NCBI GenBank assembly: GCA_041666045.1 | Contig: JBAYHR010000005.1 | Location: forward strand, 1-53,373 | Direction: 5' to 3' | Source: Minisyncoccota bacterium | GTDB taxonomy: Bacteria > Patescibacteriota > Minisyncoccia > Phycocordibacterales > UBA9973 | Length of the DNA: 53,373 nucleotides | Shown here: in pieces, positions 19,428-36,457 of the stretch | Layout of the letters: each line of letters opens with the position of its first letter | Numbering within the stretch: the first letter of the stretch is position 1 | The notes under the pieces: model-generated | The model's input: the letters and a program-made list of their open reading frames with translations, nothing else | Database searches by the model: none | Told to the model about the DNA's origin: nothing | Program-made: the position numbers and the translations under genes

Positions 19428-19447
19428 TTATAAAGTTCATTAAATCT

Positions 19448-19936
19448 ATGAATAAGAATGAAATACAAAATTTAATAAAAGAATTAATTGAGAAAACAAC
19501 TATAAGTGTAAAAGATATTACTATTACTGAAGATAATGGTAAAACAACATGGTTTTCAGTTGAAGTTTCTGATCCGCATTTTTTTATAGGACGTAGTGGT
19601 GAAGGTCTTTCAGCGTTAAATCACATAGTTAGAAGAATAGTTGAATCTAAACAACTATCTATGTCCGACATAGGCACAGGAAACACTGAAAATATGTCAA
19701 TTTTAGTTGATATTAATGGTTTTCAAAAAAAGAGAACAGAAAATATCCATGCAATAGCGCATATGATGGCAGAACGCGCTAGATATTTTAAATCAAATAT
19801 AGAAATTGATCCAATGTCAGCTTTTGAGCGTAGAATTGTGCATGAATTTTTATCTAATGAAACAGATTTAAAAACCGAATCAACAGGGGAAGGATTATCT
19901 CGCAGAGTTGTAATAAAATACATAGGAACTATATAA
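19448..19936 (+). CDS. jag: Jag/KhpB RNA-binding protein (KH + R3H)
   Basis: 162 aa with the R3H region FERRIVHEFLS, in the conserved position after yidC. Confidence 0.85.
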   Translation: MNKNEIQNLIKELIEKTTISVKDITITEDNGKTTWFSVEVSDPHFFIGRSGEGLSALNHIVRRIVESKQLSMSDIGTGNTENMSILVDINGFQKKRTENIHAIAHMMAERARYFKSNIEIDPMSAFERRIVHEFLSNETDLKTESTGEGLSRRVVIKYIGTI

Positions 19937-19956: not shown

Positions 19957-21306
19957 TTATTTTAAGTTAAGTTTCCAAAGATAAGAATCTTTTTTGTTTA
20001 CAAAAAATAGATAATTTTCACCTTCATCTAATGTAAGTTTTATAGTATCTATATCTTCTCCCCCATTAGTTGAGACCATATCTGAAATTATGGTTGTCCT
20101 TCCATCTGAAATATTTATTTTCCAAAGTTCATCTGAAAAAGAAGTTTCTCCCATATACCATGAGTCTGGATATTCTTTTGTTTCAATAAATTTAGGTACA
20201 GCGCAATATATTACGTCACTTGTTTTGTTCCAAACACACTTTTCTGGCAAAGTTTGTATTCCAAGCGTATTAATTTCTCTTGTATTTACATTATAAACAC
20301 TAAGAGATAAATTATTGTTTCCATATAAAACTAGTTTTCCATCTGGGCTCATTAGTGTTGTGAGACCATTTATTCCACCTAATATTTTATTAAAATCTTT
20401 TCTGTCTGGATTTATTGCATACATATATCCTGGCACATTTGCAGACGGCTTGGATGTAAGAGTAATTATATTTTTATTTGGCCAAAATGATGTCCATTCT
20501 GTAAATGAAGAATCGAATACTTGAGATTTTTTATTAGTAAGTGGGTCTAATGTTATTCCGACGGTAGTATTCCCTGTGTTAAATAAATAAAAAATTTTTG
20601 AGCTATTAGGAGAAATACTTACATCTGTGACATTTTCTGGCAAAAATATCCCACTTATTTCATTGCCCCCTGTTGTGTCTGCGCCTAAAAATTCTTTTGG
20701 CAAACTTCCTATAAAGCTTTCTATTGTTATTCCATCAGATTTCAAATATCTCATTATCACAGATTCCCCACTGTTTGCCAAATATGATTCACGAACTGCT
20801 GGTATTATGGTTTCTGAGAATTTTCTTTCGTCTATTTTATCAGCGAAAGTTTGATAAATGTTTCCTGTTGCTCTATCCACATATCTTAAAGCTGGCACGA
20901 ATTCAGTCGGTGGTGGGGTAGGTTTAGTTGTTTCTGTTGTGGTTGATTGTGGTGAGCTTGTTAAATCTATTTGTTCTACTGGAATTACTGTTGGCACATC
21001 TTTAAATCTTTCTTTCATAAATATTCCATATCCAGCTATTGGCATACTGGAAACTTTATTTAATTTAACTATTGGCGTTTCTGTCGTTGAATTTAACTCA
21101 AACCCTGAAATATCAGCTGGAGGAATTGTGTCTGTTGTTTGTGTGGCTGGCTTGCTGGTTGGAAAAAATTGAGAAAAGAAGTTTGTGCCTGTTGTTGTTC
21201 CTGTTTGACCAACTGTTCCTGAATTAGAAAAATATAAATATCCAAAAGTAACAATTACTATTGTTACTAATGCTATTATTAAAAGTTTTAAATTTCTTTT
21301 TGACAT
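19957..21306 (-). CDS. membrane-anchored secreted protein with a PD40/TolB-like beta-propeller signature
   Basis: 449 aa. N-terminal TM anchor, a T/P-rich linker, and PD40-like motifs such as MSPDGKLVLYGNN. Confidence 0.4.
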   Translation of the reverse strand: MSKRNLKLLIIALVTIVIVTFGYLYFSNSGTVGQTGTTTGTNFFSQFFPTSKPATQTTDTIPPADISGFELNSTTETPIVKLNKVSSMPIAGYGIFMKERFKDVPTVIPVEQIDLTSSPQSTTTETTKPTPPPTEFVPALRYVDRATGNIYQTFADKIDERKFSETIIPAVRESYLANSGESVIMRYLKSDGITIESFIGSLPKEFLGADTTGGNEISGIFLPENVTDVSISPNSSKIFYLFNTGNTTVGITLDPLTNKKSQVFDSSFTEWTSFWPNKNIITLTSKPSANVPGYMYAINPDRKDFNKILGGINGLTTLMSPDGKLVLYGNNNLSLSVYNVNTREINTLGIQTLPEKCVWNKTSDVIYCAVPKFIETKEYPDSWYMGETSFSDELWKINISDGRTTIISDMVSTNGGEDIDTIKLTLDEGENYLFFVNKKDSYLWKLNLK

Positions 21307-21320
21307 AAAATTAAATATTT

Positions 21321-22694
21321 TTAGCTTCCATCATCAGACCAGTGCCATGATTCACTGGCTAAATTTTTTAAACCATATGTTTTTGCATTATTAGAAAGCC
21401 ATTTAAAACAAACACTATTTTTTCCACCTGATTTTTCCATACTTTGTCCATTGCATGTAAAATCAATTGCTTTTCCTGATTCATGTTTTGAGTGGCCAGG
21501 TCTAGCTGTTGGAGGTTTGCATGTATTAGATGGTGAAGTATATATATCTGGGCATTTATGTTTTTTTCTGAGGTCTATTTGTTGATCATAAGTTCTTGCT
21601 CCCCAACCAGAGAGTATAATATTTACTTTTTTAGCCGCAGCAAGCATTTTTTGTGAATTTTCAGAAATAGATTTACATACGTTTATTTTTGTTGGTGATC
21701 CATAGGTGGTAATGTTTGTGTATCCTTCCTTGCAAGTACCTGTTGGGCTTGTAAGATTTGATGTACCTTCCCATGGTGCTAATTCTGTTTCAGGATCTAT
21801 TGTTAATGTTGCTTGTTCTAGTTTACTTAATCCTACATTAAGCAGATCCGGATTTAAAGTATTTAATATTGCATAAGAGCCAAGCGCTAATATAAGTCCT
21901 AATATTGCATGTGTTATTCTTTCTTTTCCTTCATTTTTTCCTGAAACAAGTTCACTCGTCATATATTCTATTCCACCCATTACAATCATTATCATTGAAA
22001 GAACTGCTGCAATGCCGATGAATATTTGTATCATCATATTTAAATAACCAGCAAAGCCTGTTCCCGGCGTGCAACCTTTATCTGTTGGGCCACAAGGGAC
22101 GCAAGTTTCTACTCCACCCTCAGTCGTGCATTTTTGAGTGCCAAGTTTTATACAAGTAGTTTTTGGAGGATTTGAATTATCTTGTGTGCAATTGGTTTCC
22201 CCTACTCCTGGCAATGGAGCTAAAGGATAATAATTTTCCTCTGTTTTTGTATTATTCTCCGTTGTTGGAATTATTGTATTATAAATTATTACTGGTTTTG
22301 AATTTGATTCAGTGCCTGTAGTTTTTGAAAAAGTTGCTGTTTTGTCTCCTATTCGCACATTAACTTGATAAGAAACACCTTGAACTAAAGTATTTTTAGT
22401 ATTATAAACAGCTTGATTGTTTATTATTTTTTCTATTATTGATTCTTCTTCTGTTGTTTTTGCATCAATTGTTTTAAAAAGTTTTACACTGGCGGAAGTG
22501 TTGTCTGGAACGTTTGTTGTATTAATTGAAATTAACCATGACCATCGGTCTGTTTGTGTGTTTAAGTCTTCTTTTTCTAATTTTAATGTAAGTGTTGGAT
22601 CAGCCGCTAAGCTTGCAATAGGAAAAACTAAACTAACCAAAAATAGCGTTAAAAAAGAAAAACTTATTATTTTTTTTATTTTAGAAATTAACAT
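21321..22694 (-). CDS. fusion protein: secreted N-domain + T4SS-pilin-like (TrbC/VirB2-like) two-TM module + M15 (VanY-like) peptidase
   Basis: 457 aa. Signal peptide and a Cys-rich linker. The two-TM module is FAGYLNMMIQIFIGIAAVLSMIMIVMGGIEYMTS...AILGLILALGSYAILNTL. The C-terminus has HSKHESGKAIDF and SWHWSDDG, typical of zinc D-Ala-D-Ala carboxypeptidases. Confidence 0.5.
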   Translation of the reverse strand: MLISKIKKIISFSFLTLFLVSLVFPIASLAADPTLTLKLEKEDLNTQTDRWSWLISINTTNVPDNTSASVKLFKTIDAKTTEEESIIEKIINNQAVYNTKNTLVQGVSYQVNVRIGDKTATFSKTTGTESNSKPVIIYNTIIPTTENNTKTEENYYPLAPLPGVGETNCTQDNSNPPKTTCIKLGTQKCTTEGGVETCVPCGPTDKGCTPGTGFAGYLNMMIQIFIGIAAVLSMIMIVMGGIEYMTSELVSGKNEGKERITHAILGLILALGSYAILNTLNPDLLNVGLSKLEQATLTIDPETELAPWEGTSNLTSPTGTCKEGYTNITTYGSPTKINVCKSISENSQKMLAAAKKVNIILSGWGARTYDQQIDLRKKHKCPDIYTSPSNTCKPPTARPGHSKHESGKAIDFTCNGQSMEKSGGKNSVCFKWLSNNAKTYGLKNLASESWHWSDDGS

Positions 22695-23649
22695 TGATTT
22701 CTTTTTCCAAATTTAAAAACATGCTTTTAATATTATTTATTGTAACTTTTACAGTTGAGTTTCCTATTTGCCCCGCTTCTGGCCTTATTCCAAGCTCATT
22801 TTTTGGATTAGGGGTAGTTATATCAGAACCGCCAAGCAACCATTTGAATTCCAGATCAGAAGAATTTAAATTTTTAGGTGAGAAAAAATAAGGCTCGGCA
22901 ATAAAAATTATTCCACTTTGATCTATTACAAATCCATTATCTATAGCTTTTTCGTATTTTGTGCCAAGATTTAAATCTTTCTGATAAAAAACTATTTTTG
23001 GATTTATTGGATTTATTGTTATTTTTCCTTGTCCGCTATTATTTCCTGCTAAATTTGATGTTGTTACTTCTACTGTATTTTGTTTGTCTAAAAAACTATT
23101 TTTGAATATGTAATAATTTTTTTTATAACCAGAAGAATCTGGTTTATTTGTATCATCTAGTTTCCAATTATAACTAAGGCCTGCGCTGTCGCGTGAATTA
23201 GTCAAAGCAACGATTTTTAATGTTCCTTCTCTTGCATTAAGGGCTTTTCCTTTATAAAATGGCGGTGTGTAAGAATCAGGCGCTTCCCAAAGCATATCTA
23301 TGTCGCTTGGAGTTATAATTATTTTTTTATTAATAAAAGATCCGTCAGAAGTTTGTATTTCCACTTCAAGAATTGTTTGAAGTCCGGTACTTGCGGTGGT
23401 AAAAGAAAAATCTTTCTTACCAACAGCTTGTATTGATAGTTGTCCGTTTAATTTCCAAGAAATATTTGCTTTATTCAAATCAGTTGAAAAAGTTGCGACA
23501 GATGCTTTTACTTCTTCGTTTGCTTTGGGATAGTTAGGATTTATACTGAGAACAACATCTGCACTTTGTACTTGCGCGTATACAGAAAAAGCGAAAAATA
23601 CATATATAAAAGCAGAAAATAAAATTGTAATCTTTCTTGCCATATTCAC
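22681..23649 (-). CDS. secreted beta-rich protein, unknown function
   Basis: 322 aa with a signal peptide (FAFSVYAQV). No family recognised. Overlaps the next gene by 14 nt. Confidence 0.45.
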   Translation of the reverse strand: MNMARKITILFSAFIYVFFAFSVYAQVQSADVVLSINPNYPKANEEVKASVATFSTDLNKANISWKLNGQLSIQAVGKKDFSFTTASTGLQTILEVEIQTSDGSFINKKIIITPSDIDMLWEAPDSYTPPFYKGKALNAREGTLKIVALTNSRDSAGLSYNWKLDDTNKPDSSGYKKNYYIFKNSFLDKQNTVEVTTSNLAGNNSGQGKITINPINPKIVFYQKDLNLGTKYEKAIDNGFVIDQSGIIFIAEPYFFSPKNLNSSDLEFKWLLGGSDITTPNPKNELGIRPEAGQIGNSTVKVTINNIKSMFLNLEKEINVNF

Positions 23650-23665
23650 ATTATATCACACATTT

Positions 23666-25501
23666 TTATCCTTTAGCTTCTTCTAATTCTTGTTTTTCCT
23701 TTTTAATTGAAAGAATTTGAGATGGATCAGAAGTTATTATTTGGTCTTCTGTATAAGAAGATATTACCTTTATTGCCACGTGTTTTAATCCTGCGAAGAA
23801 TATTCCCTCTCCCACGCCCGATTCTAGAAGTAAATATTTTTCTTCATCTGTAAGATTAAATGTTTTTTGTAATACGTCTATAGTAGAGGGTGATTGTTTA
23901 AGAAGGATTTGAATTGATGAGTTGGTAACAATAGGCACTCCATAAGGAGATTTCATAAAGTCTGCAGCGTCTTGGGTTATGGTCATAAGTCCTAAATAAT
24001 ATTTTCTTCCTCTTTTTGCTATAGAATATAAAAATGACGCAGTATCTTCAGATTTCATCATCCACCAAGCTTCGTCCACAACCAATAAGCGCTTTTTTAA
24101 GTTTTTACGGATAGCATTCCAAATATAATGAGTAACTATATACATGGCTATTGGTTTTAATTCATCTTCCATATCACGAACAGAAAATACTACGAATTTT
24201 TTATTAATATCAACATTGGAAGGTTTGTTTAAAAATGTAGACCAAGAACCGCGTGTATATTTGATAAGTCTTTGAACAACAGAATCACTTCCTTCCATTC
24301 CAGAAAGTACCATCTCAAAGTCTGAAAGAAGTGGCGGTTCAATATTTGTAAAATCAGATTCTGGTGTTATGTCTTTTATCGCATAAGTTTCTGAAATAGC
24401 GCGGTCCACCATAGAATCTTCTTCTGGGGTAAGACCACCTAACATAAGCCTGAAAAGACCCACTAAATTGATAATATTTGAACGTAATACATCTTCCGCT
24501 GTTTCATCTTCTCTCGGCATTGGCAAGTCAAACGGGTTGATATGGTGATCAGAAGACAAAGATATATTAAAATATCTTCCACCAACTGCTTCTGCTAAGT
24601 ATTCATATTCTCGTTCTGGGTCTATAACTATCACATCAATATCAAACATTAAAGATCTTAAAATTTCCAGTTTTGTGGCATAAGATTTTCCAGATCCAGA
24701 TTTGGCAAAAGTTACAGAGTTGTAGTTTTCTAATGAAAATCTGTCAAAAATAACTAGACTTGAATTGTGCCTGTTTACTCCATAAAGTATCCCTTTGTCT
24801 GAGGTTAAGTCAAAAGAGATAAATGGAAAGATGCTTGAAAGCGGTTCAGAATTTAATTTTTGGTGAATACCTAAAATATCATTACCTATTGGTATAACGC
24901 TTTTAAATCCATCTTCTTGTTGAAATAATGCCGGTTTAATATATATTAATTTTGATTCAAGAATGGATTTTATTTCACTTTCAATTTTAAAAAGTTCCAT
25001 ATCATTATCGGCATATATTGTAATATATACACCAACATCAAACATTTTTTCTTGCGCCTGCATTAAATTATCACGGAGACCTTCTAAGTCTTGATATGCA
25101 GTATCTAGCATTGGGTCACGCACCATGCCTTTAGATTCACGCACACTTATTTGACTTTGAACCTCAGCAACCTTTTTTTGAAATTGTCGCAGTGCCAAAG
25201 AAGTATCTATCGGATGTATAAAAATTGAAACATCAAAAACTTTATCCAAGTTTATTATTGGAGAAAACCAGTTATCAGTCAAGAATTTGGGATAAGATAT
25301 TATAAAAAAAGTACGCGCTATTTTATCACCCAAATTTATAGATTTTGATTCTATTTTTAAAGCTGATGGAGCTATGACGTCTTGGAGTTCAAGCGTTGCT
25401 GATTCGTAGATTTCCGCAGGCATTACTGCTAATACAGAAGCACTTGCTCCTTCGTTTGTTTCTATCTTCTTTTTTCCTAATAATGTATCTAAAAATGACA
25501 T
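23666..25501 (-). CDS. VirB4/TraE-like type IV secretion ATPase (C-terminal two thirds)
   Basis: 611 aa. Walker A FAKSGSGKSY, Walker B LLVVDEAWWMM, and the region IARTFFIISYPKFLTDNWF typical of Gram-positive VirB4 homologues. Confidence 0.75.
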   Translation of the reverse strand: MSFLDTLLGKKKIETNEGASASVLAVMPAEIYESATLELQDVIAPSALKIESKSINLGDKIARTFFIISYPKFLTDNWFSPIINLDKVFDVSIFIHPIDTSLALRQFQKKVAEVQSQISVRESKGMVRDPMLDTAYQDLEGLRDNLMQAQEKMFDVGVYITIYADNDMELFKIESEIKSILESKLIYIKPALFQQEDGFKSVIPIGNDILGIHQKLNSEPLSSIFPFISFDLTSDKGILYGVNRHNSSLVIFDRFSLENYNSVTFAKSGSGKSYATKLEILRSLMFDIDVIVIDPEREYEYLAEAVGGRYFNISLSSDHHINPFDLPMPREDETAEDVLRSNIINLVGLFRLMLGGLTPEEDSMVDRAISETYAIKDITPESDFTNIEPPLLSDFEMVLSGMEGSDSVVQRLIKYTRGSWSTFLNKPSNVDINKKFVVFSVRDMEDELKPIAMYIVTHYIWNAIRKNLKKRLLVVDEAWWMMKSEDTASFLYSIAKRGRKYYLGLMTITQDAADFMKSPYGVPIVTNSSIQILLKQSPSTIDVLQKTFNLTDEEKYLLLESGVGEGIFFAGLKHVAIKVISSYTEDQIITSDPSQILSIKKEKQELEEAKG

Positions 25502-25505
25502 AAAA

Positions 25506-26153
25506 TTAATTTGTTTGTTCTAATTGTATCTTCCCTTCCAATTCGCCAGGATTAAATACTTTATAAAATACTTCTACAACTTCTTCTGTGCCAAGTTGGG
25601 CTGATTTTATTCCACAACGCGCAAGTCCTTGTTGTATTACACTCACTCTTTGTTCCATTTGTGATCTTTTTTCTTCAAAGTCTGCTTGTTCTGTAGCTTT
25701 TATTTCCTCTTTACTTTTTTTGGAAAATAATCCGCCAAATATTCCAGCTTCTGATTTTAATGTTGTGTGCGTGTAAGGAACTATAATAAAAAAACTTTTT
25801 GTCATTATGCTTACTGATTCTGTAAAATTTCTAATAAAATCTATATATTCTCTAGTTTGCAATTTAAGCAATGGCTCGTTTTGCACTTTCATTCTGTTTT
25901 CTAAAAGTAAAAGATAAGGACGAATATCTAATTTTCTTGATTGAATGGATATTTGTATGGAAAAATCTAATGTGTTTAAGAAACTTTGAAATTGAAGTAT
26001 TGTCGCTTTTTGTTCGTCATATGATTTTAAAGATAAGTTTGTTGAATTTGCCAATACAATAGAACGCAGTCCCCCATCTTTTAATACTATAATACCATCA
26101 CGGACTTCCTTGATTGGCACGAACTCTTGAGTTGCTTTTGCTGATATGGCCAT
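25506..26153 (-). CDS. VirB4 N-terminal-domain-like protein (apparent split of VirB4)
   Basis: Start taken at MAISAKATQEFVPIKEVRDGIIVLKDGG...ANSTNLSLKSYDEQKATILQFQSFLNTLDF, which resembles the extreme N-terminus of Gram-positive VirB4/TcpF/Orf16-type ATPases. The stop lies 4 nt before the ATPase ATG. Confidence 0.45.
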   Translation of the reverse strand: MAISAKATQEFVPIKEVRDGIIVLKDGGLRSIVLANSTNLSLKSYDEQKATILQFQSFLNTLDFSIQISIQSRKLDIRPYLLLLENRMKVQNEPLLKLQTREYIDFIRNFTESVSIMTKSFFIIVPYTHTTLKSEAGIFGGLFSKKSKEEIKATEQADFEEKRSQMEQRVSVIQQGLARCGIKSAQLGTEEVVEVFYKVFNPGELEGKIQLEQTN

Positions 26154-26173
26154 ATATTTTAAATTAAAAATTA

Positions 26174-26599
26174 TTATTTTTCTTTTTTTAAATCTAGAAC
26201 GTCTAGACTCCATGCTAAATCTTTTAATTTACTTCCACTAAGTCTTACTGTTTCTTTATTCAGTATTTGGTTTGTTTGTTGTATCGCAATTTCAGTTTTT
26301 TGTTTAACATTTATTTTATTTTCTCTTCTTTTCCAAATATAAAGCTTATCTTGAAAAAAGAATTTGAAACCAGACTCAAGCATATTTATAAAAGGTTTTC
26401 CATTTGGACGATAGAAGGTAAGAGCCAAAGAAAATGATGCAACTAAAGCCATTGGGATAAAACCTAATAATAACCCTAATAATTTATATAAAACAAAACA
26501 CAAACCTCCTCCCCCAGCCAAATAAATAAATTGCCTAAAGGTAAATGGTCCAAATATTTTATCTTCTATGTCTAAAAATTGTGGTACTTTAAACTGCAT
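26174..26599 (-). CDS. PrgI/VirB3-like small membrane protein
   Basis: 141 aa. MQFKVPQFLDIEDKIFGPFTFRQFIYLAGGG followed by two TM helices, and positioned directly upstream of VirB4. Confidence 0.5.
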   Translation of the reverse strand: MQFKVPQFLDIEDKIFGPFTFRQFIYLAGGGGLCFVLYKLLGLLLGFIPMALVASFSLALTFYRPNGKPFINMLESGFKFFFQDKLYIWKRRENKINVKQKTEIAIQQTNQILNKETVRLSGSKLKDLAWSLDVLDLKKEK

Positions 26600-26613
26600 A
26601 ATTTTATTTTACA

Positions 26614-27366
26614 CTACTCAGGCATTTCACGATATGGGTCTACTTTAACTGAAAAAGATGGTGAAGTGGAAGCTGTGGCGCCGGATGTTGGTTTTATTGT
26701 CGCTCCTAATGGAACTTTTACGCCAATATCTTTTGGACCTTCTGGTGTTTTGGAAGTTTTAGACATATTGTTTAGAGAATATTCTGTTTTTGTATTTGGT
26801 ATTTGGAAAGAACCGGAAAGTTTTTGCGCTGAGATTGATTGCATTATTTTTTTATTTTGCATTTCTTTTGCGATAAGTTCAGGATCTTCAATTTTTTTAA
26901 TCATTTCATCTCTTGAATCACCACTCCTCCCGTCCCCTCCTCCATAAGGCGGGGAAGCTTGCCCCCCCTCCTTTTCAAGGAGGGGGTTGGGGGTGGTAAT
27001 TTCTATCCCTGCGTTATTTAATATTTCATCGTCTTTTTTTTCTTCTTGTTTCCCATACAAAGACATTAATTTTTCTCTTATCTCTTTTAAGATTTTTTCA
27101 TTTACTTCATTTACTATTTTTTTGTTTTTATCATCTGGTAACTGCAGACTTCCTTTTACAGATGCTTCAAATTTGTCTGGATGAACAAAGCCAAACATAA
27201 CCATATGCGTTTCAAGAGATAATTGTCCCATTTGTTCCACAGTAAGATTATTTTCCTTGCCTATTTCTGTGATTTTTTCATCAACATTTACAGCCATAAT
27301 CGCCCATCTTAAATCTTCTGGTAAACTCTCAAACTTTTTTTGTATTTCTTCTAATGTTATTTCCAT
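26614..27366 (-). CDS. hypothetical protein carrying a GC-rich repeat insertion
   Basis: 250 aa. Helical N-domain and a low-complexity C-terminal half. The segment TTPNPLLEKEGGQASPPYGGGDGRSGDS is encoded by the repeat at 26921-26997. Confidence 0.5.
   Translation of the reverse strand: MEITLEEIQKKFESLPEDLRWAIMAVNVDEKITEIGKENNLTVEQMGQLSLETHMVMFGFVHPDKFEASVKGSLQLPDDKNKKIVNEVNEKILKEIREKLMSLYGKQEEKKDDEILNNAGIEITTPNPLLEKEGGQASPPYGGGDGRSGDSRDEMIKKIEDPELIAKEMQNKKIMQSISAQKLSGSFQIPNTKTEYSLNNMSKTSKTPEGPKDIGVKVPLGATIKPTSGATASTSPSFSVKVDPYREMPE
26921..26997. repeat. GC-rich hairpin repeat (about two tandem units), in frame
   Basis: cccctcc-tccataa-ggcgggg, then aagcttg, then ccccccctcc-ttttcaa-ggaggggg-ttgggggtgg. 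Same architecture as 36630-36667. Confidence 0.65.
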
Positions 27367-27392
27367 ACTATTTTTTATTTAACTAATAATAT

Positions 27393-30300
27393 TTATTTTG
27401 TTGGTGTTGATGGTGTAGAGGGTGGTGTTACAGGTGGTGTTGATGGTTGTGATTTAAAACTAGGAGTATTTTCGCTTTTTGTTGTTGTCGCTGTTGGTGT
27501 ATTTGCTTTTGCTTTGTCTTTTTTGAAATTATATTCTTGATTTTTTAGAGTATTAACCTCTTTTAATGCGGTTCTTAGTTTTTCTAGTCTTGCTGTTTCT
27601 ATTGTATTATTAAATAATCTTTCTTTAGTTTTTGTTGTGTCTTGTTTGTCATTAATAAGCTTTCTAAGAGTAAGTTTTTCTTCTTCTGCGGCTATTGCTA
27701 ATTTGGTTAGAGCTTTTGTTATTTCTGTTTGAGCTTCTTCATCTATTGTAAATCCTTGTTCTCTGTTTCCTTTTACTAAATTTACAAAATTTCCTTTCTC
27801 GTCTTTCGTTATATTATTTCCCTTCTCCAACAGATCATAATTTTTACCCAACTCTTCTGTTATATGGCTTAATTTTTCTTCAATATTTCCAAGAGTTTTT
27901 ATTTGTCTACCCATAGCTGCTCGTGTTAATCTCTCAGATTCTTGTTGTTTCAAACCTTCTCCAACAACTGAACCAGCTCCTAATCCAAATCCACCAAGTC
28001 CGCCAACCATTGCTCCTGCAACTCCTCCTCCTATCATTCCAGCTCCTACTATTCCTCCTATACCACCAGTTGCTCCTGCTAATGCCACACCAATTGCCAA
28101 TTTTGTACTTTTTGCTCTTTCATCCAATATTTTTTCTTTTTCTTCACTAAGTTCTTTTTGTGTATAATTTGGATTAATTGCTTGAAGATTTGCTTTTGCT
28201 TTATCTTCAATTTTATTTCCAGTTCCAGCCAAATCATCTGCTGTTTTAACTGCAGTATAAGCAACTGAAGATACAAATCCTGTTTTTCCAATATTGTCAT
28301 TAAATACTTGCATTCTGTGATTATTTAATTGTTCAGCAGTTGTAATATCACTTCCGTCAGAATTTTTTAAACGATTAGATCTCTTTTCATTCCAAGTTTT
28401 CACTTCAGCGTCTGTCATCTTTGTTTTTGTGGTTTCAAATTCTTCCATAGCTTTCTTATTTCTATTTTCAAGAGTCTTTTGATACCCTCCTTCTTTAACG
28501 CCTAATCCAACCATTTGCGCGCCTTTAGTTAAATTAAGACCAGCCATTCCTGCCAATCCGCCAAGCGGAGATTTTCTTGCGTCAAAAGAAGATTTAGTAG
28601 CAGCAGTTGTTGCTTTAAGCATTAATCTTGCGGCAAAACCGCCTAATCCTTTTTCTTCAGCTTTTGATTTAATACTTTCGCCCGCTTTACTTCTTAATAA
28701 GTAAGAAGTTCCCGCTCCAACAGTTCCGCGAGCCAGAAGAGCTCCAGCGCCAAGTGCTACCCCGCCGACTAACCCTGTTGCCATTCCTCCATATTTACTC
28801 AAAGTTGCGCCTAATTGTCCAGAATAATCAACTGCCAGTTTTTTTGCTTGCATTAAAAGGATAAAAATAATAGAAAATGGAATTATTGTTTTCATTAATC
28901 GTTGTATAAAATCCTGTGAATTTGATGCATAACCAATAGCTTCTTTTCCAAGGTCTGTAAATAAAACTATTATATATAAAAAGAATAAAAAAATAGGAGC
29001 GAGAAAAGCCGCTTTTAACAAATCATCCCACCATTTTTTATGGCCGAAACCGGGAATATCAAAAGGGACAGTATATGATGCAAAAGCTAGAGGTGCAAAA
29101 ATCATAGCTAACCAAAGAGAAACAACTCTACTAACAAAAAGTATTGCAACAACAAAGAACATATAAGCAGAGTAGAGAGTTAATGCTATAAGCAATAAAG
29201 TTATAAAAACAAATTTTCCACGAGACATGTCATACATATCTGCTGATACAATTTCTTGCGGATTAAAACCCTTAATAAGACCTACTGATATTGATTTTTG
29301 ACCACCACTACCTGGTGGTAAAGGAGCTCCATTTTTATCTACAGATGTAATTTGATTATAAAATACCTTGGCTAGTATATTTGATGCGTCAATAATCACT
29401 TCTGTAAAAAATAAACTAAAATTTATAAGTAAGGCAATTATAATAATAGCGCTTATTAATTTTTTGTTATTTGTCACATTTAAACTAAGTATTGTTTTGA
29501 TTGCTATATATAAAAGAGCAATTATAAAAAAGATATTTGCAATATCTCGTATTATTCCCCAACCTTTTGTAACGAAGGGTGATGTATATGAATCACTATT
29601 TGTTGAATAATAAATAAAAAAATCAAGAAAACTTCCTGCCATATTGGCAATCCACGCTGATACTTCCCAGATAAAATAAGTTACACCAGCGATACAACCT
29701 ATCACTTGGTCTATCCCTAAAACTCCGCAGTTAAAAGAATATCCTGCTGTCGTTGGAGTAATGTCAGTAATACTATTGTTGTTTTCTCCTGTTGGATTGC
29801 TAATTATATCTTGCATTGCTTGTTGGTCGCCATTGTATAGACCTTCTCTAGGAGTTTTAAATTTTATTTCTAAAGGTGTTGATTTTATTTGATAATAATC
29901 TTTTTTAGTAGAATTTAATAAATTTACTCCTCCTCCTTCACCATTTGTTTCAGATCTATAATAAAGTTTTGCAACATAATTTGTATCAGGTGTTAGTTTA
30001 GTTACTAATATTTTTCCTGAGATAGTATTTAAAATATTGCTTGTTAAATAAAGAGCATATGATTTTTGATCTAATAAGTTAGTTGGTGGAACTATTAATT
30101 TATTTTCAGTATTAAAAATAGTTAATAATACAGCATTTTCTTGATATGTATTCATAGTTGCAAGATCAACATATTTCCATTCTTCTTTTTCACCTTGTCC
30201 AGGAATTATTTCAAAGTTAAATCCAGCACTAGCGCTAGTTGGACCACTTCCACTGAATGAACCAAATACTTCAAAAGTACTTTGATTTAACAAATTTTCA

Positions 30301-30452
30301 TAAAGAGAATAATCTTCAGCGTTTGCTTTATTTATTTTAGTTTCCAAAGCCAATTGCCCATTTTGTTTTTCAAAAACTGGAGAAATAGGCGCAAGCAAAA
30401 TAGCTATTACTATAAAAGATATTAGAATTTTTGATAAAAATTTTCTTTTCAT
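27393..30452 (-). CDS. VirB6/TrbL-like polytopic membrane protein with secreted N-domain and Gly/Ala-rich plus coiled-coil C-terminal region
   Basis: 1019 aa. Signal/anchor, a soluble domain of about 240 aa, a block of many TM helices (about aa 250-560), GxxxG-rich segments, and a PT-rich tail. Confidence 0.45.
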   Translation of the reverse strand: MKRKFLSKILISFIVIAILLAPISPVFEKQNGQLALETKINKANAEDYSLYENLLNQSTFEVFGSFSGSGPTSASAGFNFEIIPGQGEKEEWKYVDLATMNTYQENAVLLTIFNTENKLIVPPTNLLDQKSYALYLTSNILNTISGKILVTKLTPDTNYVAKLYYRSETNGEGGGVNLLNSTKKDYYQIKSTPLEIKFKTPREGLYNGDQQAMQDIISNPTGENNNSITDITPTTAGYSFNCGVLGIDQVIGCIAGVTYFIWEVSAWIANMAGSFLDFFIYYSTNSDSYTSPFVTKGWGIIRDIANIFFIIALLYIAIKTILSLNVTNNKKLISAIIIIALLINFSLFFTEVIIDASNILAKVFYNQITSVDKNGAPLPPGSGGQKSISVGLIKGFNPQEIVSADMYDMSRGKFVFITLLLIALTLYSAYMFFVVAILFVSRVVSLWLAMIFAPLAFASYTVPFDIPGFGHKKWWDDLLKAAFLAPIFLFFLYIIVLFTDLGKEAIGYASNSQDFIQRLMKTIIPFSIIFILLMQAKKLAVDYSGQLGATLSKYGGMATGLVGGVALGAGALLARGTVGAGTSYLLRSKAGESIKSKAEEKGLGGFAARLMLKATTAATKSSFDARKSPLGGLAGMAGLNLTKGAQMVGLGVKEGGYQKTLENRNKKAMEEFETTKTKMTDAEVKTWNEKRSNRLKNSDGSDITTAEQLNNHRMQVFNDNIGKTGFVSSVAYTAVKTADDLAGTGNKIEDKAKANLQAINPNYTQKELSEEKEKILDERAKSTKLAIGVALAGATGGIGGIVGAGMIGGGVAGAMVGGLGGFGLGAGSVVGEGLKQQESERLTRAAMGRQIKTLGNIEEKLSHITEELGKNYDLLEKGNNITKDEKGNFVNLVKGNREQGFTIDEEAQTEITKALTKLAIAAEEEKLTLRKLINDKQDTTKTKERLFNNTIETARLEKLRTALKEVNTLKNQEYNFKKDKAKANTPTATTTKSENTPSFKSQPSTPPVTPPSTPSTPTK

Positions 30453-30495
30453 AATTTCAGCACACCTTTAACTAAATTCTACCACGAAATGATTT

Positions 30496-32448
30496 TTATT
30501 TCTTAAAATAATACTCATATCCATAAGTATTTCTTAAGTTTCCAGTCATACTTTGTATGTTGACTATTCTTCCATTGAAATATTCGTATACTGTTAGTTT
30601 GTTTCCAATTAGGATAAGTTGATAAGCTGCAATATCTGGTGTGACTACTCTTATTTCTTTTCCATTTCCATTTACATAACCAAAACTTCTTGCAAATAAA
30701 TCTGCAAGATACCAAGCAAAAGTTTCTAAATTAGCTCCTTCCGCATAGCCATATCTTTTTGCAAGATTTGGATTTGCAATTATTTGTCGCGCAAAAACTG
30801 TTTCAATTCCTTCATGATAGTGAACGATTGCATCAGATGGCGCATTTGCATTTTGCCCTACTGTTAGAGTTGTTGTCGTTGTTGATCCATTTGTTGCTCC
30901 TGTGCCTGTTGTAACTTGATTATAAACACCGCCTTGATTTATGTAAGGTTCTTTTGTTTGTGGCTCAAACACATCAGATTCTTCTTGCATTCCTTGTCCA
31001 TTTCCAGATGTTTTTGTTGTAAAACTTAAATCACCTCCATAAAAAGTTTTTGAAACTTCTGGAGGTTTTACAACTGTTTTTGCCACAAGATGAAATTTAT
31101 ATTTTGTTCCCGCTTTTAATCCAGACAAAAGAAAACTCACATCTCCGTAAGAATTAGTATGATGACTTTGGTTGCTTGAAGTTATTGCAATCCATGGATT
31201 TTTTGTTACTGACGTTCCAACAGTGCTTATTTCATTTGGTGTGTCTTTTTTATATTCAAAATAAGTTTCAACTGCTTTTGTAGAATTGTAAGATCCTTTT
31301 AACCAAGCGGATGTTTGATTTACAACTGTTGCATTATTGGTTGTTACTGTGGTTTGTATGCATTCAGGACAAGGAAGAGTTGTAAAGTTTTTAACTTCCC
31401 CATATTTGATTCCATTCTTACTGGAAACGATTGCGCAATAATAATATTTTGTACTTTCTTGTAGACCACTTATTTCTTGAAAAAAACCTTGTTGGCCACC
31501 ACCTACAGTTATATTTCTGTCTACTGTTGAAATCATATTGCTTCCGTAAATATCTTTACAAAATATTGGTGGTACTGTTTCATCTGAATATCTGAAATAT
31601 GCAGTTGTTGGTTCTGTGTCGGGAGTTGCTGAACCTCTCAACGTAGCTTCTGTATCAGAAATATTATTTGTAATATTATTATTACAAATAGTAGGAGGAG
31701 TTAGATTGGTTTCTGTTGTTCCACAAGTTGTAATTTCAGCGTCAAAAGGAATTTCATCGTTAAACGTTATATCAATCGGTAATAATGTGTTTAAAGTTTT
31801 GAAATTTTTAATTTGACCATAAGAGGTTCCAGCGCTGTTTTTGGTTACAATCCTAAAATAATATAACGTATTCAATTCAAGATCCTTTATACTTTGGTTT
31901 GTTGAACCAGAACCACCAAGATCTTGTGGTGTTGTAGATAGCATAGATATGCTATTGGTTAAAGAAAAATCTTTGTCATATTGAAACCAAACACTAGTGC
32001 TGTTTCCAACGAATGTTGTCCAAGACCCGTTTAATTTAGCTGTAGTTCCAGTTATATTTGAGACGATATCAGATGTTGTGGATACAGGTAAGGTTGATGT
32101 TGGTAAGGTTATAAAATCTATCCAACCAGCACAATGTGTTGTTCCGTCACGTTCAAAACAAGCGCGAGAATAATAAGAAGTATTTGGTGAAAAACCAGTA
32201 ATAGTTTTACTAAATGGACCCTTATAGTGTTTTTCTTTTGGTGTTGTGAATTTGTTAGTTTCAAACCAAGTATCAAACGATCTGTTTCCATCAACATCAA
32301 AATAACCATTTAGAGTTGCGCTTGTGTTAGTAATGTTGGTTGTAGGATAATTATATACACTCCATGCAAAAACTGAAATAGGTATTGCTAAAAAAGAAAA
32401 AGAGAGAATTATTGCAAATATAGAAATTTTTAAAATTTGTTTTTTCAT
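30496..32448 (-). CDS. secreted protein with about four divergent FN3/Ig-like repeats and a unique C-terminal domain
   Basis: 650 aa with a signal peptide. The recurring module pattern is T..A.L.G.....WF.Y..........Y(Y)....(V).....G..YG....F.T. Confidence 0.5.
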   Translation of the reverse strand: MKKQILKISIFAIILSFSFLAIPISVFAWSVYNYPTTNITNTSATLNGYFDVDGNRSFDTWFETNKFTTPKEKHYKGPFSKTITGFSPNTSYYSRACFERDGTTHCAGWIDFITLPTSTLPVSTTSDIVSNITGTTAKLNGSWTTFVGNSTSVWFQYDKDFSLTNSISMLSTTPQDLGGSGSTNQSIKDLELNTLYYFRIVTKNSAGTSYGQIKNFKTLNTLLPIDITFNDEIPFDAEITTCGTTETNLTPPTICNNNITNNISDTEATLRGSATPDTEPTTAYFRYSDETVPPIFCKDIYGSNMISTVDRNITVGGGQQGFFQEISGLQESTKYYYCAIVSSKNGIKYGEVKNFTTLPCPECIQTTVTTNNATVVNQTSAWLKGSYNSTKAVETYFEYKKDTPNEISTVGTSVTKNPWIAITSSNQSHHTNSYGDVSFLLSGLKAGTKYKFHLVAKTVVKPPEVSKTFYGGDLSFTTKTSGNGQGMQEESDVFEPQTKEPYINQGGVYNQVTTGTGATNGSTTTTTLTVGQNANAPSDAIVHYHEGIETVFARQIIANPNLAKRYGYAEGANLETFAWYLADLFARSFGYVNGNGKEIRVVTPDIAAYQLILIGNKLTVYEYFNGRIVNIQSMTGNLRNTYGYEYYFKK

Positions 32449-32453
32449 ATTTT

Positions 32454-35048
32454 TTAGTAAACATTAAATCTTTTTTCAAATCCTCTAGTTACAACACCAC
32501 AATTGTCTATACCCCAACTTGCTTGTTCTATATTGAGTGGCAATGGTGCTTGAATAATGGCAACTCCAACAATATTTCCAGAATCATTTTTTTCAAATGC
32601 TTCTGGACATAGAGGGGATGTTATTGGAATAACAAAACTAAGTTCATTAAAAGGTGTATTAAAATTATTGTAATAAGCGGCACCATATAAAAATCCATTA
32701 TTTGGGTCATTGCCACCAGAATTAGTAGGAGTTATCATTGGTTGTATATTTACTGAATTATACGGTATATTATATGGTTCTATTGCATCTCCAGGATAAA
32801 GATGATCTATTGTGTAAGGATAAGCTTGTCTTCTTACATATTTGCTGTATATTGATTTGTCTGTTGTCCAAACAGTGTGTAGAAACTTTTCACAACCAAA
32901 ATCTCCTTCCAATAAATTATTTTTGACATAATTTTTTTCATCTAAAGTTTGTTTATAAAGATTATCAATGTTTGCTATATCATCACCATTTACAAAATAA
33001 CCAGACAATCTAGCAAAAGCTGTTACAACTTCGCTTGATGGATCATCAAAATTTGCATCCGGTATTGCATTAGAACCCGTTTGTTCTATTAATTCTTTAA
33101 AGTTTTTAAGTCTTGTAATTATACTTTTTCTAAAAGCGATTTCTGCCATATTATTTTCAATTATTTGTTGATAGCCGGTAATTTTTAGAAATTCTGCATG
33201 AGACTCAAGTGTTACATCAGGCATATATTTAGCAGAATATTCAGTTGATGAAAAATAATATTTATTTATTATATTTTTATAACTTTTAAAAATTTTTTGA
33301 AACAACTCAGTTATTCCTTCTTTGTCGGTAATTTGTGTTTGGTCAGCATCCATTCTAACATCAAGAACATCTTCTAAAAAAGTCGCTATGTCTTTATTTT
33401 CAGCCTTAGCACTTACACCTAATAAATTGTCAATTGTTGTATTAAGACCTCCGCTTAATGTTGAACCTAACTCATACCATCCTTGTCCTGCTTGCCACCA
33501 TTTTGGATTGGATTTCATTGTATTGCCATTTATTGCTTCTAGTGTTGTGTTTTCCCAATCTGGATTAGGTCCTGGAATACAATAATCAAGTTGACGAATC
33601 CATTTTATTAAATCTCCAAGAGCAGTATTATAAGAATCTAATTTGATTAAATATGTTCTTTGTTCATCAACTAATGCCTGAGTAACTCCTGTTTTAAGAT
33701 CAAAGTTTGGATTATTTTGAAGCCAAGGTGTCATATATGATTCAGGGAATTGTGTGCCAGAGTTTTGTGTGTTTGTTTGGTTAAAAAGATATCCAAGATC
33801 AATATTTTCAGATGATGATGTATCATTATTATTATTTGAAAGAGCTGTCATTCCCTCATTCATTAATTTTGAAGAAAATCTTGCCATAGCAGCATCCAAA
33901 ATAGCTGCAATTGCATCGTTTAATGTTTCTGCATCTAAAAGCGCGTGATTTTCAAATCCCACAGTAGCTGTTAAATGGTCGGCTACATATTTACCAGGTG
34001 TGCTATATTCCCATTTATTACATATTCTTGAACTTTTATCACCACTACGTGCCTTCGCATCTTCTTCTTTAGAAAGTCCTGTTGGACTAGCGCAATATTC
34101 TTGTCCAAGAATTCCACTAGATTGTAGTAAAGATTCACGTTTATTATTTGCTGTAGAACTTTCTGTGCCTGCCAAGCGTTTACTCAATTCATTTGAAGCT
34201 TCTAAATTAAAACCAAGCGGATTATTATAAGGTACTTGAGTTAATGCATTCCATGCTCCCCATCCGCCTTGTGAAAAATCTTCACTAAAACTCACAGCAG
34301 TATATTCAGGTGTAGTTTGTTGTATTAATTCATTTAAAGAATACTGCGCTTGGTCTGCAAAACGTTGGTTGAATTTATTGGCTTCATTCATTAAAAATGC
34401 TTTTCCAAAAGGAAATTTATTTGGGTCATTAATTTCTAAACCAAAACCAAGTATTTCATTTTTTGCTATATCTTTAAAAAACTTGCTTGGATCTGTTATA
34501 AACAATGGGCCATCGCTATTCTTGCCATTTATCCAATCAATTATACTTAAAGTTAAAGTTTTTATAAGCACATTAACAACCGCTTTGCCTATAGCGTTTA
34601 GACAATTATCATTTTTATCTATTGAAGCTATGCCTTGGAGTGCTGCTATATTTATTGCTTTAATTTCTGCTAATGTGATTCCATGTTCAGTTAATTGTTT
34701 AATCATTGTTGGACTGGTAATTTGAACTGAATTAGCAGCTTCTATTCCAGCTTCTGTTGCGGTGCCTAAAATTGGCGCAATTTTACCTTTCATTAAATCC
34801 TTTAAATATTGTGGAGTTATTCCTTCTTCTTTAAATAAATTAACCATTGCTTGTTGTTTTGCATGTTTTTTACAACCTGGAAATTTTAATATGGCTGGGG
34901 CAAGACTTGAAATAATTCCAGTTGCTGAAGGTGTGACATATCCAGACGCTGATTGTGCATTAGCTTTTTTTATACTTAAAAAAGGCATTGTTGTCATGCT
35001 TATGATTACAAACAAGCCAATTATTGAATTTTTGAAATTTTTTCTCAT
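32454..35048 (-). CDS. large secreted protein, unknown function
   Basis: 864 aa with a signal peptide (MPFLSIKKANAQS). No motif recognised. Confidence 0.5.
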   Translation of the reverse strand: MRKNFKNSIIGLFVIISMTTMPFLSIKKANAQSASGYVTPSATGIISSLAPAILKFPGCKKHAKQQAMVNLFKEEGITPQYLKDLMKGKIAPILGTATEAGIEAANSVQITSPTMIKQLTEHGITLAEIKAINIAALQGIASIDKNDNCLNAIGKAVVNVLIKTLTLSIIDWINGKNSDGPLFITDPSKFFKDIAKNEILGFGLEINDPNKFPFGKAFLMNEANKFNQRFADQAQYSLNELIQQTTPEYTAVSFSEDFSQGGWGAWNALTQVPYNNPLGFNLEASNELSKRLAGTESSTANNKRESLLQSSGILGQEYCASPTGLSKEEDAKARSGDKSSRICNKWEYSTPGKYVADHLTATVGFENHALLDAETLNDAIAAILDAAMARFSSKLMNEGMTALSNNNNDTSSSENIDLGYLFNQTNTQNSGTQFPESYMTPWLQNNPNFDLKTGVTQALVDEQRTYLIKLDSYNTALGDLIKWIRQLDYCIPGPNPDWENTTLEAINGNTMKSNPKWWQAGQGWYELGSTLSGGLNTTIDNLLGVSAKAENKDIATFLEDVLDVRMDADQTQITDKEGITELFQKIFKSYKNIINKYYFSSTEYSAKYMPDVTLESHAEFLKITGYQQIIENNMAEIAFRKSIITRLKNFKELIEQTGSNAIPDANFDDPSSEVVTAFARLSGYFVNGDDIANIDNLYKQTLDEKNYVKNNLLEGDFGCEKFLHTVWTTDKSIYSKYVRRQAYPYTIDHLYPGDAIEPYNIPYNSVNIQPMITPTNSGGNDPNNGFLYGAAYYNNFNTPFNELSFVIPITSPLCPEAFEKNDSGNIVGVAIIQAPLPLNIEQASWGIDNCGVVTRGFEKRFNVY

Positions 35049-35062
35049 TTCTAATTCGTAAT

Positions 35063-36034
35063 TTATTCAGTTATTATATCATTATTACTTGATAATACAG
35101 ATAATATTGTTTTTAAATTCTCAACCGATATTATTAAATCATCACTATATTGTTGATATTGAGAAAGTCCTGAAAGACCAATTATCGGATCGTCTATAAC
35201 TTTAATCATATTTCGCACAGAAACACCTGTATTGTTTGCGCTATTAATAATTGGCAAATGATATTGCGTCAAACTTTCCGGTACTTTTAATTCTATCATT
35301 TTTTGAGCAAATTCCTGATATGCGTTGGCTATATTTGTTAATTTATCTATTGAGTCTTTTGAATTTTGTGTATTTTCAGAACCAACTATATTGCTGACTA
35401 TTTCAAGTTCATCCCCAAGTCCTTCTGTTTTGTATTTTTCAAATATTTTTTGTGCAGTTGTATAATAAATGATTTGCTCACCTGCTCCGTCATTTGCGCT
35501 TAAATTAATATCTTTTTCTGTATATTTATTAATCAAATTAGGGTCAATAATATTTTGTCCTAAACTTGCCGACACATTGTTGATTGTAGTTTGGTCTATT
35601 TGTCCGCTCTGTTTCATTGCTGTCAAAGAAGCAAAAAATTGTTGAGCAAATTTATCAGTTTCTGTTAAACCATCTCCGCTTGTTGTTAATTCACTTTCAT
35701 TTGACAGTTTTAAATCATCCCTTTTTTGTTTTATATAATCGATATCTTTTGTATCATTAAAAGTTATTTCTTTGTTTGGATCTGTTCCCCAAAGCGCTTC
35801 TTCCCAATCCATTACCCCATCTCTATCAGTATCTTTTTGAAGAAGATTATCAATTGTTATTTTTTCATTTTGCAATTTTGCTTGTTTATTTAATGCAATA
35901 TAGCTGTTTTTACCAAAGAAAATACTGGAAATTATAAAAAATATAAGCCCTAGAACAATAACTCCAATTATTAAATAAGTGAATTTTTTGCTTGGCAGAT
36001 ATTTTAAATATTTTTCATCAATAAGTCTTTTCAT
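35063..36034 (-). CDS. membrane-anchored protein with a thrombospondin type-3-like Ca-binding motif
   Basis: 323 aa with an N-terminal TM anchor and the motif DTDRDGVMDWEEALWGTDP. Confidence 0.45.
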   Translation of the reverse strand: MKRLIDEKYLKYLPSKKFTYLIIGVIVLGLIFFIISSIFFGKNSYIALNKQAKLQNEKITIDNLLQKDTDRDGVMDWEEALWGTDPNKEITFNDTKDIDYIKQKRDDLKLSNESELTTSGDGLTETDKFAQQFFASLTAMKQSGQIDQTTINNVSASLGQNIIDPNLINKYTEKDINLSANDGAGEQIIYYTTAQKIFEKYKTEGLGDELEIVSNIVGSENTQNSKDSIDKLTNIANAYQEFAQKMIELKVPESLTQYHLPIINSANNTGVSVRNMIKVIDDPIIGLSGLSQYQQYSDDLIISVENLKTILSVLSSNNDIITE

Positions 36035-36085
36035 TACAACATTATTATATCATTAATGTATTTTTTATGGTATACTAATACATAT

Positions 36086-36457
36086 ATGAAAGATATTTTT
36101 AAAAAAAGAAAAGCATTAATGTTTTCTGTTTTAATATTAGTGGTATTTTTTATGTCCACTACTTCGCTTGTATATGGCGCTGGTCTTTCTTGGTTTGGTG
36201 GTAATATTAAAAGTGTAATACCATGTACATGCAGTGGCGGTTCTAAGGTAACTATTATGGGATTACCAACATTTTTTAGTGGTTCATATCTTTATATGCC
36301 TGGTGAAACACAAGTAAGAGGTAAGGGTAATGTTGTTTCTGGTAGACAAATTCTCGGTCTTTATTCATTTGGAGGTACTTGCAAAGTAGTGGTTGGAGAA
36401 GCATGTATAAATTTACGTATTTCTAAAGGTACAATGACAATGATTGGCACTAATTAA
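36086..36457 (+). CDS. small secreted Cys-containing protein
   Basis: Start taken at MKDIFKKRKALMFSVLILVVFF (the ORF track starts at 36056). Has a signal peptide and six Cys. It is the only plus-strand gene in the block. Confidence 0.45.
   Translation: MKDIFKKRKALMFSVLILVVFFMSTTSLVYGAGLSWFGGNIKSVIPCTCSGGSKVTIMGLPTFFSGSYLYMPGETQVRGKGNVVSGRQILGLYSFGGTCKVVVGEACINLRISKGTMTMIGTN

Follow-up and report, generated by a model that had tools for sequence, protein, structure and literature searches.

The 53,373-nucleotide stretch of DNA analysed here (the window; contig JBAYHR010000005.1 of assembly GCA_041666045.1, from a Minisyncoccota bacterium, with a GC content of ~30%) carries a block of 11 co-directional minus-strand open reading frames (ORFs) at 19957-36034, between jag and rsmA, that very probably represents, in its Paceibacteria/Nomurabacteria form, the chromosomal type IV secretion system (T4SS) of Patescibacteria, a system derived from monoderm (MPF_FATA) conjugation machinery that is passed on vertically beside oriC and has ceased to serve conjugation. 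The features of the Patescibacteria-clade T4SS are found together at this locus, namely a VirB4 of the FATA/CD1110 type, a TrsD-like protein, PrgI, a VirB2-like module, no nearby relaxase or type IV coupling protein (T4CP), and proximity to dnaA, dnaN, rnpA, rpmH and ksgA. On the contrary, those of a conjugative system or an integrative and conjugative element (ICE), that is, a relaxase, T4CP, integrase or att repeats at the borders, patchy presence and a variable insertion site, are not observed in the ~73 kb inspected or among the ~80 species compared.

Relaxase-less, origin-proximal T4SSs of Patescibacteria were already described in 2023-2025, and the locus is an ordinary member of this known kind. 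Wang et al. 2023 (Cell, PMC10633639) reported that the T4SS of Southlakia (SEML1_0006-0019) is essential for epibiotic growth, resembles Gram-positive conjugative systems and has pilins, and that neither a relaxase nor a coupling protein is recognisable in it. Quinonero-Coronel et al. 2025 (Microb Genom, PMC12102498) found VirB4 in 2,417 of 3,035 patescibacterial genomes as a clade nested in MPF_FATA, with genes for TrsD (the most abundant T4SS component in Patescibacteria), PrgI, VirB6 and VirB2-like proteins nearby and, in Paceibacteria and Microgenomatia, with virB4 near dnaA, dnaN, rnpA, ksgA and rpmH. In the same survey T4CP genes rarely lay near virB4, VirD4-like genes occurred in most genomes, usually far from virB4, and relaxases were present in 103 genomes.

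In the single species tested, the T4SS of Patescibacteria proved essential, and its role is under discussion (PMC11665869, PMC12857230). The present locus brings no new principle; it provides a clean and well-conserved reference layout for Paceibacteria, together with minor additions to the known system: a hairpin-hydrolase fusion, a variable surface-protein slot, five uncurated accessory families, fold evidence for VirB6, and a VirB4 conserved above DnaA. Such testable details, which include a very large putative VirB6-fold family that Pfam does not model, could direct structural and genetic studies as soon as co-cultures of Paceibacteria can be worked with.

VirB4, the TrsD-like, PrgI and VirB6-like proteins and the hairpin-hydrolase fusion

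The ATPase of the system is encoded at 23666..25501 (minus strand) as a 611-aa VirB4 of the MPF_FATA/CD1110 type, recognised by NCBIfam, Pfam and PDB profile matches. With NCBIfam conju_CD1110 the score is 373 bits (cutoff 325), the alignment spanning positions 183-733 of the 752 in the profile; Pfam P-loop_TraG matches with an E-value of 1.7e-24, AAA_10 and DUF87 being matched as well, and the comparison with PDB 4ag5, the crystallised C-terminal domain of VirB4, gives an E-value of 3.7e-39. The NCBIfam model CedB shows a weak match (E 3.4e-9). A Walker A-type motif, AKSGSGKS, can be read from the translation, with the Walker B sequence LLVVDE at 472. For comparison with relatives, one genome per GTDB species was scanned, yielding 80 loci from Nomurabacteria, Paceibacterota, Minisyncoccia or similar sources with VirB4 76-94% identical to that of the window; presence and order of the genes were assessed by tblastn and blastp of all window proteins, the 10-kb flanks restricting the counts of outer genes. 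VirB4 measures 603-669 aa in all 80 loci, and 582-623 aa among its best 120 homologues, which are 89-97% identical and, where named, come nearly all from Nomurabacteria, Paceibacterota or Minisyncoccia. The protein appears to group with patescibacterial VirB4 and the host genome to be that of an ultrasmall, Nomurabacteria-like patescibacterium.

The adjacent minus-strand ORF at 25506..26153 corresponds, according to VirB4 and TrsD profiles, to a TrsD-like protein, that is, the VirB4 N-terminal domain as a gene of its own. Its reading frame holds 215-235 aa and is extendable to 26213, the start at 26153 suiting the family length (median 214 aa among relatives). It matches positions 93-277 of VirB4_plasma (E 4.6e-10) and positions 2-118 of CD1110, and the 611-aa ORF spans the remaining positions of both profiles (287-892 and 183-733, respectively). 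The match to the TrsD/TraD family NF041427 has an E-value of 1.2e-5, below the curated cutoff, and the TrsD profile searched against the PDB produced no match. The first-pass annotation of this DNA had described a VirB4 split in two ORFs; the short ORF is indeed homologous to the VirB4 N-terminal domain, but the pair is not a broken gene, the TrsD-like gene being separate from, and adjacent to, virB4 in 80 of the 80 loci, as a conserved TrsD-type arrangement. A frameshifted or pseudogenised VirB4 was ruled out, considering the clean TAA stop, the next ORF lying in another frame, and the two-gene layout being universal in relatives.

The next gene of the block encodes PrgI, a VirB3-like membrane protein of 141 aa at 26174..26599 (minus), with a Pfam PrgI score of 38.8 bits over a cutoff of 27, in agreement with its initial assignment. 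It displays a hydrophobic segment at residues 27-45 and is found in 76-77 of the 80 loci.

Topology, gene position and predicted fold point, with moderate confidence, to a VirB6-like polytopic membrane protein in the 1019-aa product of 27393..30452 (minus). Its hydropathy profile suggests a signal or transmembrane (TM) segment, an exo-domain of ~210 aa, 6-7 TM helices within residues 243-574 and a long hydrophilic C-terminal tail, Gly/Ala and coiled. Residues 225-650 were modelled with AlphaFold2 (AF2) on the basis of 43 sequences (pLDDT 78, pTM 0.69), and the model had as top Foldseek match in the PDB the TrwI/VirB6 chain 8rt9_F of the R388 T4SS (probability 0.99, E 0.1, TMt 0.47, rmsd 8.4), with five more VirB6 chains in the match list. 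In 64-65 of the 80 loci its gene is found upstream of prgI, at a distance of two genes. This fold match and this position are the reasons for calling the protein VirB6-like, a likeness that does not by itself establish family membership.

Sequence profiles, on the contrary, give the VirB6/TrbL-like call of the first-pass annotation no support: no Pfam or NCBIfam model, those of VirB6, TrbL and PrgH included, matched the 1019-aa protein or 16 orthologues, even at E<=1, and two profiles of the family found nothing among PDB sequences. All 120 homologues listed for the protein are unnamed or 'hypothetical', and the family, with 7,356 clusters at 50% identity (E<=1e-30), has no curated model. In a profile search of 1.84 billion proteins the matches listed were close relatives only, so that no chaining to annotated VirB6 proteins was achieved. 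Altogether, the parts initially named as VirB3, VirB4 and VirB6 are borne out by significant matches for the first two and by a moderate fold match for the third.

A VirB2-like two-helix hairpin and a VanY (M15) peptidoglycan peptidase are fused in the 457-aa protein encoded at 21321..22694 (minus), as seen in Pfam matches. VanY scores 41.8 bits (E 1.2e-10); T4SS_pilin, with 23.8 bits (E 4.8e-5), falls just under its cutoff of 26.6 here, but is matched by 11 of 13 orthologues (best E 4.2e-7), three of the 13 matching TrbC/VirB2. The pilin-like module fused to an M15 peptidase, as first proposed, is in this way corroborated. The N-terminal exo-domain of the protein is variable and a YxLAPLP motif is conserved in the family. 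The C-terminal domain changes among the 13 orthologues, being VanY in ten and M15_4, NlpC/P60 and Amidase_5 in one each. Neither further VirB2-like hairpins nor free pilin genes were found in the 53-kb window. No mention of a hairpin-hydrolase fusion was found in PMC12102498, and this fusion with an exchangeable wall-hydrolase domain represents a small addition to the known system.

Position beside the origin and conservation among relatives

The T4SS block starts 20 nt past jag and 2.3 kb from dnaA. Gaps between its ORFs range from -14 to +43 nt, a packing that is operon-like. The genes listed by the first-pass annotation lie where it had placed them, mostly on the minus strand and tightly packed (11 minus-strand ORFs and a plus-strand one at 36056-36457), and the flanking jag and rsmA and the proximity to the origin are likewise confirmed, by Pfam for dnaN, dnaA, rnpA, yidD and yidC and by translation for rpmH.

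Across relatives the recurring gene order is uvrD, rsmA, the genes for the 323-aa and 864-aa proteins, a variable slot, the gene for the VirB6-like protein, that for a 250-aa protein, prgI, trsD, virB4, and the genes for the 322-aa protein, the hairpin-hydrolase and the 449-aa protein, followed by jag, yidC, yidD and rnpA and then by dnaA and dnaN. The block is thereby found in the same order and at the same site in ~80 species-level Nomurabacteria/Paceibacteria genomes, a synteny that the first-pass annotation had proposed as a check. The median identity of VirB4 is 87% across 78 species, that of TrsD being 74%. In 49 of 53 loci the conservation of VirB4 exceeds that of DnaA (medians of 87% vs 82%), which argues for strong selection on the block.

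No att-like direct repeats were found at the borders of the block, and the GC content shows no step there. A Pfam scan of the window ORFs of at least 100 aa revealed no relaxase, VirD4/TraG/TcpA coupling protein, integrase or VirB11, and the precomputed Pfam matches of the genes called in the 10 kb past each end contained no relaxase, T4CP, VirB11 or border integrase; the neighbourhood inspected in this way amounts to ~73 kb of the 113-kb contig. Considering that (i) order and site are conserved in ~80 species, (ii) att repeats are absent from the borders, and (iii) no relaxase, T4CP or integrase lies nearby, we infer from these sequence comparisons that the block is a vertically inherited core-genome locus under strong purifying selection and not an ICE. 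This concurs with the initial proposal of a chromosomally fixed machine rather than a conjugative element, and the border inspection suggested with it for att-like repeats, relaxase, coupling protein and integrase came out negative. The further description of the system as relaxase-less and coupling-protein-less holds for the window and for the 10 kb beyond each end, but can be claimed for these ~73 kb only: since VirD4-like genes occur elsewhere in most patescibacterial genomes (PMC12102498), 'coupling-protein-less' is not assertable genome-wide.

Some neighbouring genes resemble parts of secretion or mobile systems. A 565-aa T2SSE ATPase at 4604-6301 (plus), ~14 kb from the T4SS block, has an MshEN N-terminal domain, and is therefore a PilB-type pilus ATPase and not VirB11. 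The 218-aa ORF at 9411-10067 (plus), beside ruvC, encodes an IS200-like Y1 (HUH) transposase (Pfam E 1.5e-8) and not a relaxase; no other gene of the window resembles a mobile element. Outside the window, ~3 kb past its right end, lies a gene for a tyrosine recombinase of the XerC/D type, at a distance of ~21 kb from the T4SS block and therefore not at its border.

Comparison with known systems and possible function

The block resembles the T4SS of Southlakia epibionticum and the Patescibacteria clade in combining a FATA VirB4, TrsD, PrgI/VirB3, VirB6-like and VirB2-like proteins and a wall hydrolase, and in being chromosomal, near dnaA/dnaN/rnpA/ksgA, with no nearby relaxase or T4CP. It differs from the Southlakia-type system in showing no free-pilin array and instead a single hairpin fused to a variable hydrolase domain, in having exported accessory proteins that are class-specific and outside curated families, and in a VirB6 invisible to sequence profiles.

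With the Gram-positive conjugative T4SSs of pIP501 and pGO1 (pSK41), which belong to the TrsD-containing subclass of MPF_FATA, it shares a separate TrsD/TraD gene before VirB4 and a monoderm architecture without VirB7/9/10. The tra/trs order of these plasmids, which we take to be VirB3-like, TrsD, VirB4, membrane protein and peptidoglycan hydrolase, is also the order observed here. Unlike the plasmid systems, the block has no nearby relaxase, T4CP or oriT, is chromosomal and vertically inherited, and carries an M15 peptidase where the plasmids have an SLT/CHAP hydrolase. A further difference is its VirB2-like module, absent from Gram-positive systems (PMC12857230).

The effector translocators Bordetella Ptl and Brucella VirB are examples of T4SSs functioning in the absence of a coupling protein (PMC12102498; PMC12857230). 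In contrast with the present block, both are systems of the diderm MPF_T type that have the complete VirB2-11 set and whose protein substrates are known. Helicobacter pylori ComB and archaeal Ced are chromosomal, relaxase-free machines of the VirB4 family that import nucleic acid. They too are different from the block, ComB being diderm with VirB7-10 and Ced having unrelated membrane partners; for the system described here, import is one of two possible directions of transport.

By analogy with VirB/Prg/Tra systems, VirB4 hexamers would dock at the membrane via PrgI and TrsD, and would energise a translocon based on VirB6, both in its assembly and in the transport through it. At the site of assembly, the hydrolase tethered by the hairpin would open the wall and may act as the seed of a short, pilus-like conduit. 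The exported proteins (those of 323, 864, 322 and 449 aa and the FN3-repeat protein) could make up the extracellular part and establish contact with the host cell. Relaxase-processed DNA is most probably not the substrate. Regarding the direction of transport, import of host macromolecules or nucleotides and export of effectors appear about equally probable; effector delivery and uptake of host molecules are both discussed as possible functions in a 2025 FEMS review (PMC12857230) and a 2024 perspective (PMC11665869), and a preprint on a cultivated Minisyncoccota strain reports tubular structures at the interface with its host, uptake of host RNA and pili possibly belonging to the T4SS (bioRxiv 10.64898/2026.06.21.733656). 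A bolder version, which we regard as doubtful, is that the VirB2-type hairpin tethered to swappable hydrolases, the four exported or anchored families (323, 864, 322 and 449 aa) and an adhesin slot of high variability form the previously undescribed extracellular half of a host-piercing conduit importing host RNA or nucleotides; if true, it would explain that VirB4 is conserved above DnaA.

Several points weigh against the assignment of the block to a non-conjugative, Patescibacteria-clade T4SS. The VirB6 component rests on fold (with a Foldseek E of 0.1), topology and gene position only, and none of the anchored proteins of the block gave a sequence match to a VirB8-like part (PrgL/TraM/TcpC). 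The 457-aa hairpin protein may be a membrane-anchored hydrolase only and not a pilin. To five conserved proteins no role can be assigned, and other parts of the genome may encode a T4CP or a relaxase.

The most probable of the alternatives, even so unlikely, is a surface organelle that moves no substrate into or out of the host and serves only for attachment to it, as an adhesive pilus or as an anchor spanning the wall. The VirB2-like module, the exported proteins of Ig, FN3 and propeller type and the variable adhesin-like slot would fit such an organelle, and VirB4 is established to drive pilus biogenesis (cited in PMC12102498). Nonetheless, the sole VirB2-like hairpin sits within the 457-aa multidomain protein, no free pilin gene being found in the window, and adhesion is already given in Patescibacteria by type IV pili (PMC10633639), of which the PilB-type ATPase at 4604-6301 would be a part here.

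That the block serves conjugation or DNA release, its relaxase, coupling protein and oriT being encoded elsewhere on the chromosome, is considered very unlikely. This alternative draws on T4CP genes often being far from virB4, on VirD4-like genes being present in 2,918 of 3,035 patescibacterial genomes (PMC12102498), and on the limited part of the genome inspected (~73 kb). However, relaxases occur in only 103 of those 3,035 genomes, and the t4cp homologue of Southlakia is non-essential in contrast to its T4SS genes, which are essential (PMC12102498); furthermore, the fixed core-genome position and the very high conservation of VirB4 are atypical of a mobility function. Hardly credible, finally, is an ICE or decayed ICE remnant inserted beside the origin, since, despite parts descending from monoderm conjugation machinery, the IS200-like transposase at 9411-10067 and the tyrosine recombinase ~21 kb to the right, the same block occupies the same site in ~80 species without att-like repeats or a GC step at its borders, all its ORFs are intact, VirB4 is conserved above DnaA, and the recombinase is XerC/D-like and away from the border. 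The non-conjugative, vertically inherited T4SS of the patescibacterial kind is consequently the reading preferred here.

Accessory proteins, variable slots and flanking features

Five conserved accessory families, four of them exported or anchored (323, 864, 322 and 449 aa) and one cytoplasmic (250 aa), match no curated Pfam or NCBIfam model and would constitute a further minor addition. The twelve genes of the first-pass annotation are all present, but it had left the 250-aa protein undescribed. This is encoded at 26614..27366 (minus), has no TM segment and carries a conserved DPYRExPE motif at its C-terminal end; it gave no Pfam or NCBIfam match and is found in 60-65 of the 80 loci. A relationship with DUF5663 was considered and rejected, the comparison finding the two unrelated. 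That annotation had also grouped six signal-peptide or membrane-anchored proteins without a recognisable family: those of 323, 864, 322 and 449 aa are indeed conserved, but the FN3-repeat protein and the plus-strand ORF are not core parts.

The first gene of the block, at 35063..36034 (minus), encodes a 323-aa protein anchored by an N-terminal TM segment (residues 13-31) and carrying a DxDxDGxxDWEE motif that resembles a calcium loop, of which D68, D76, W77 and E79 are nearly invariant. It is found in 36-39 loci, a flank-limited count, and rsmA directly abuts its gene in about half of the loci reaching rsmA. The 864-aa protein that follows (32454..35048, minus) has a signal peptide and is secreted, mostly helical and Cys-containing. 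Its family shows 50 invariant columns, including DxCxPGPxP (DYCIPGPHP in the consensus, DYCIPGPNP in the window), and it was detected in 46 of the 80 loci, again a flank-limited count. The 120 homologues listed for it are all unnamed or 'hypothetical', stray precomputed Pfam matches appearing in only six; its AF2 model is poor (pLDDT 60.8), with nothing but generic helical bundles among the Foldseek matches.

On the other side of virB4, the 322-aa protein at 22681..23649 (minus) is signal-anchored and beta-rich, and is found in 73-75 of the 80 loci. It probably carries Ig/PKD-like repeats, as suggested by weak matches to PKD_3 and to Ig_3, each in 3 of 45 orthologues; PDB sequences gave no match. 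Its candidacy as a VirB8-like protein found no support, the hints being weak and of Ig/PKD type only. The 449-aa protein at 19957..21306 (minus) is N-terminally anchored, has a Thr/Pro linker and is found in 66-68 of the 80 loci. A beta-propeller is probable for it, its family profile matching weakly a TolB propeller in the PDB (E 0.013) and its orthologues weakly PD40 (3 of 45); PG_binding_1 appears in 5 of 45.

The secreted FN3-repeat protein of 650 aa (30496..32448, minus; Pfam Pur_ac_phosph_N/fn3) occupies a variable slot, with a homologue in only 14 of the 80 loci. In 24 of 45 loci the slot holds no ORF of at least 150 aa, 20 of them having no gap at all and four lacking such an ORF, and in the remaining loci it contains genes of 179-1180 aa. 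A second variable slot is that of the divergent plus-strand ORF of 133 aa with a signal peptide at 36056..36457, which lies 21 nt from the first gene of the block (36034-36056). It has no homologue at 1e-5 in the 80 loci. In about half of the loci reaching rsmA its slot is empty, and others have there an opposite-strand gene of 250-420 aa, one with PG_binding_1; the ORF was consequently rejected as a core part of the system.

The left flank consists of origin-region housekeeping genes (dnaN to jag, 14965..19936) identified by Pfam, except rpmH, by translation, and keeps the same order in related loci: dnaN (14965-16062, minus), dnaA (16302-17645, minus), rpmH for L34 (17794-17928, plus), rnpA (17933-18295), yidD (18261-18551), yidC (18672-19427) and jag/KhpB (19448-19936). 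The right flank (36454..39266, minus) comprises rsmA/ksgA at 36454-37251 (minus; Pfam RrnaAD, 1.1e-54) and a UvrD/PcrA helicase (Pfam UvrD-helicase, 3.3e-86), both at the same position in related loci reaching that far. Terminator-like matches on the coding strand of the block are three, weak, all within ORFs and not above chance, and a strong terminator-like hairpin is present at 36521-36543 (plus strand), inside the 3' end of rsmA. Promoter-like sites are fewer than in shuffled sequences, scans for promoters and terminators being uninformative at 30% GC.

Further to the right, four K/E/N-rich ORFs (1004, 366, 274 and 368 aa) at 39614-45956 (minus) have no Pfam match; the region shows a lower GC content (26-27%) and a strongly negative AT skew, and none of its ORFs is matched in the 80 loci, within the limits of their flanks. 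A 387-aa protein with LysM and M23 peptidase domains is encoded at 46170-47333 (plus), ~10 kb from the cluster, and lacks synteny with the block in most relatives, being matched in only two related loci; M23/LysM domains occur on some VirB1-like proteins (PMC12102498). A bAvd gene and a reverse transcriptase gene (RVT_1) are located ~0.5-1.8 kb past the right end of the window, as in a diversity-generating retroelement (DGR)-like arrangement, and a 271-aa ORF starting within the window (~52722) adjoins this pair and could be a DGR target. Four tRNA genes, for Gly-TCC, Pro-TGG, Arg-TCG and Gly-GCC, are present at 48128-49306.

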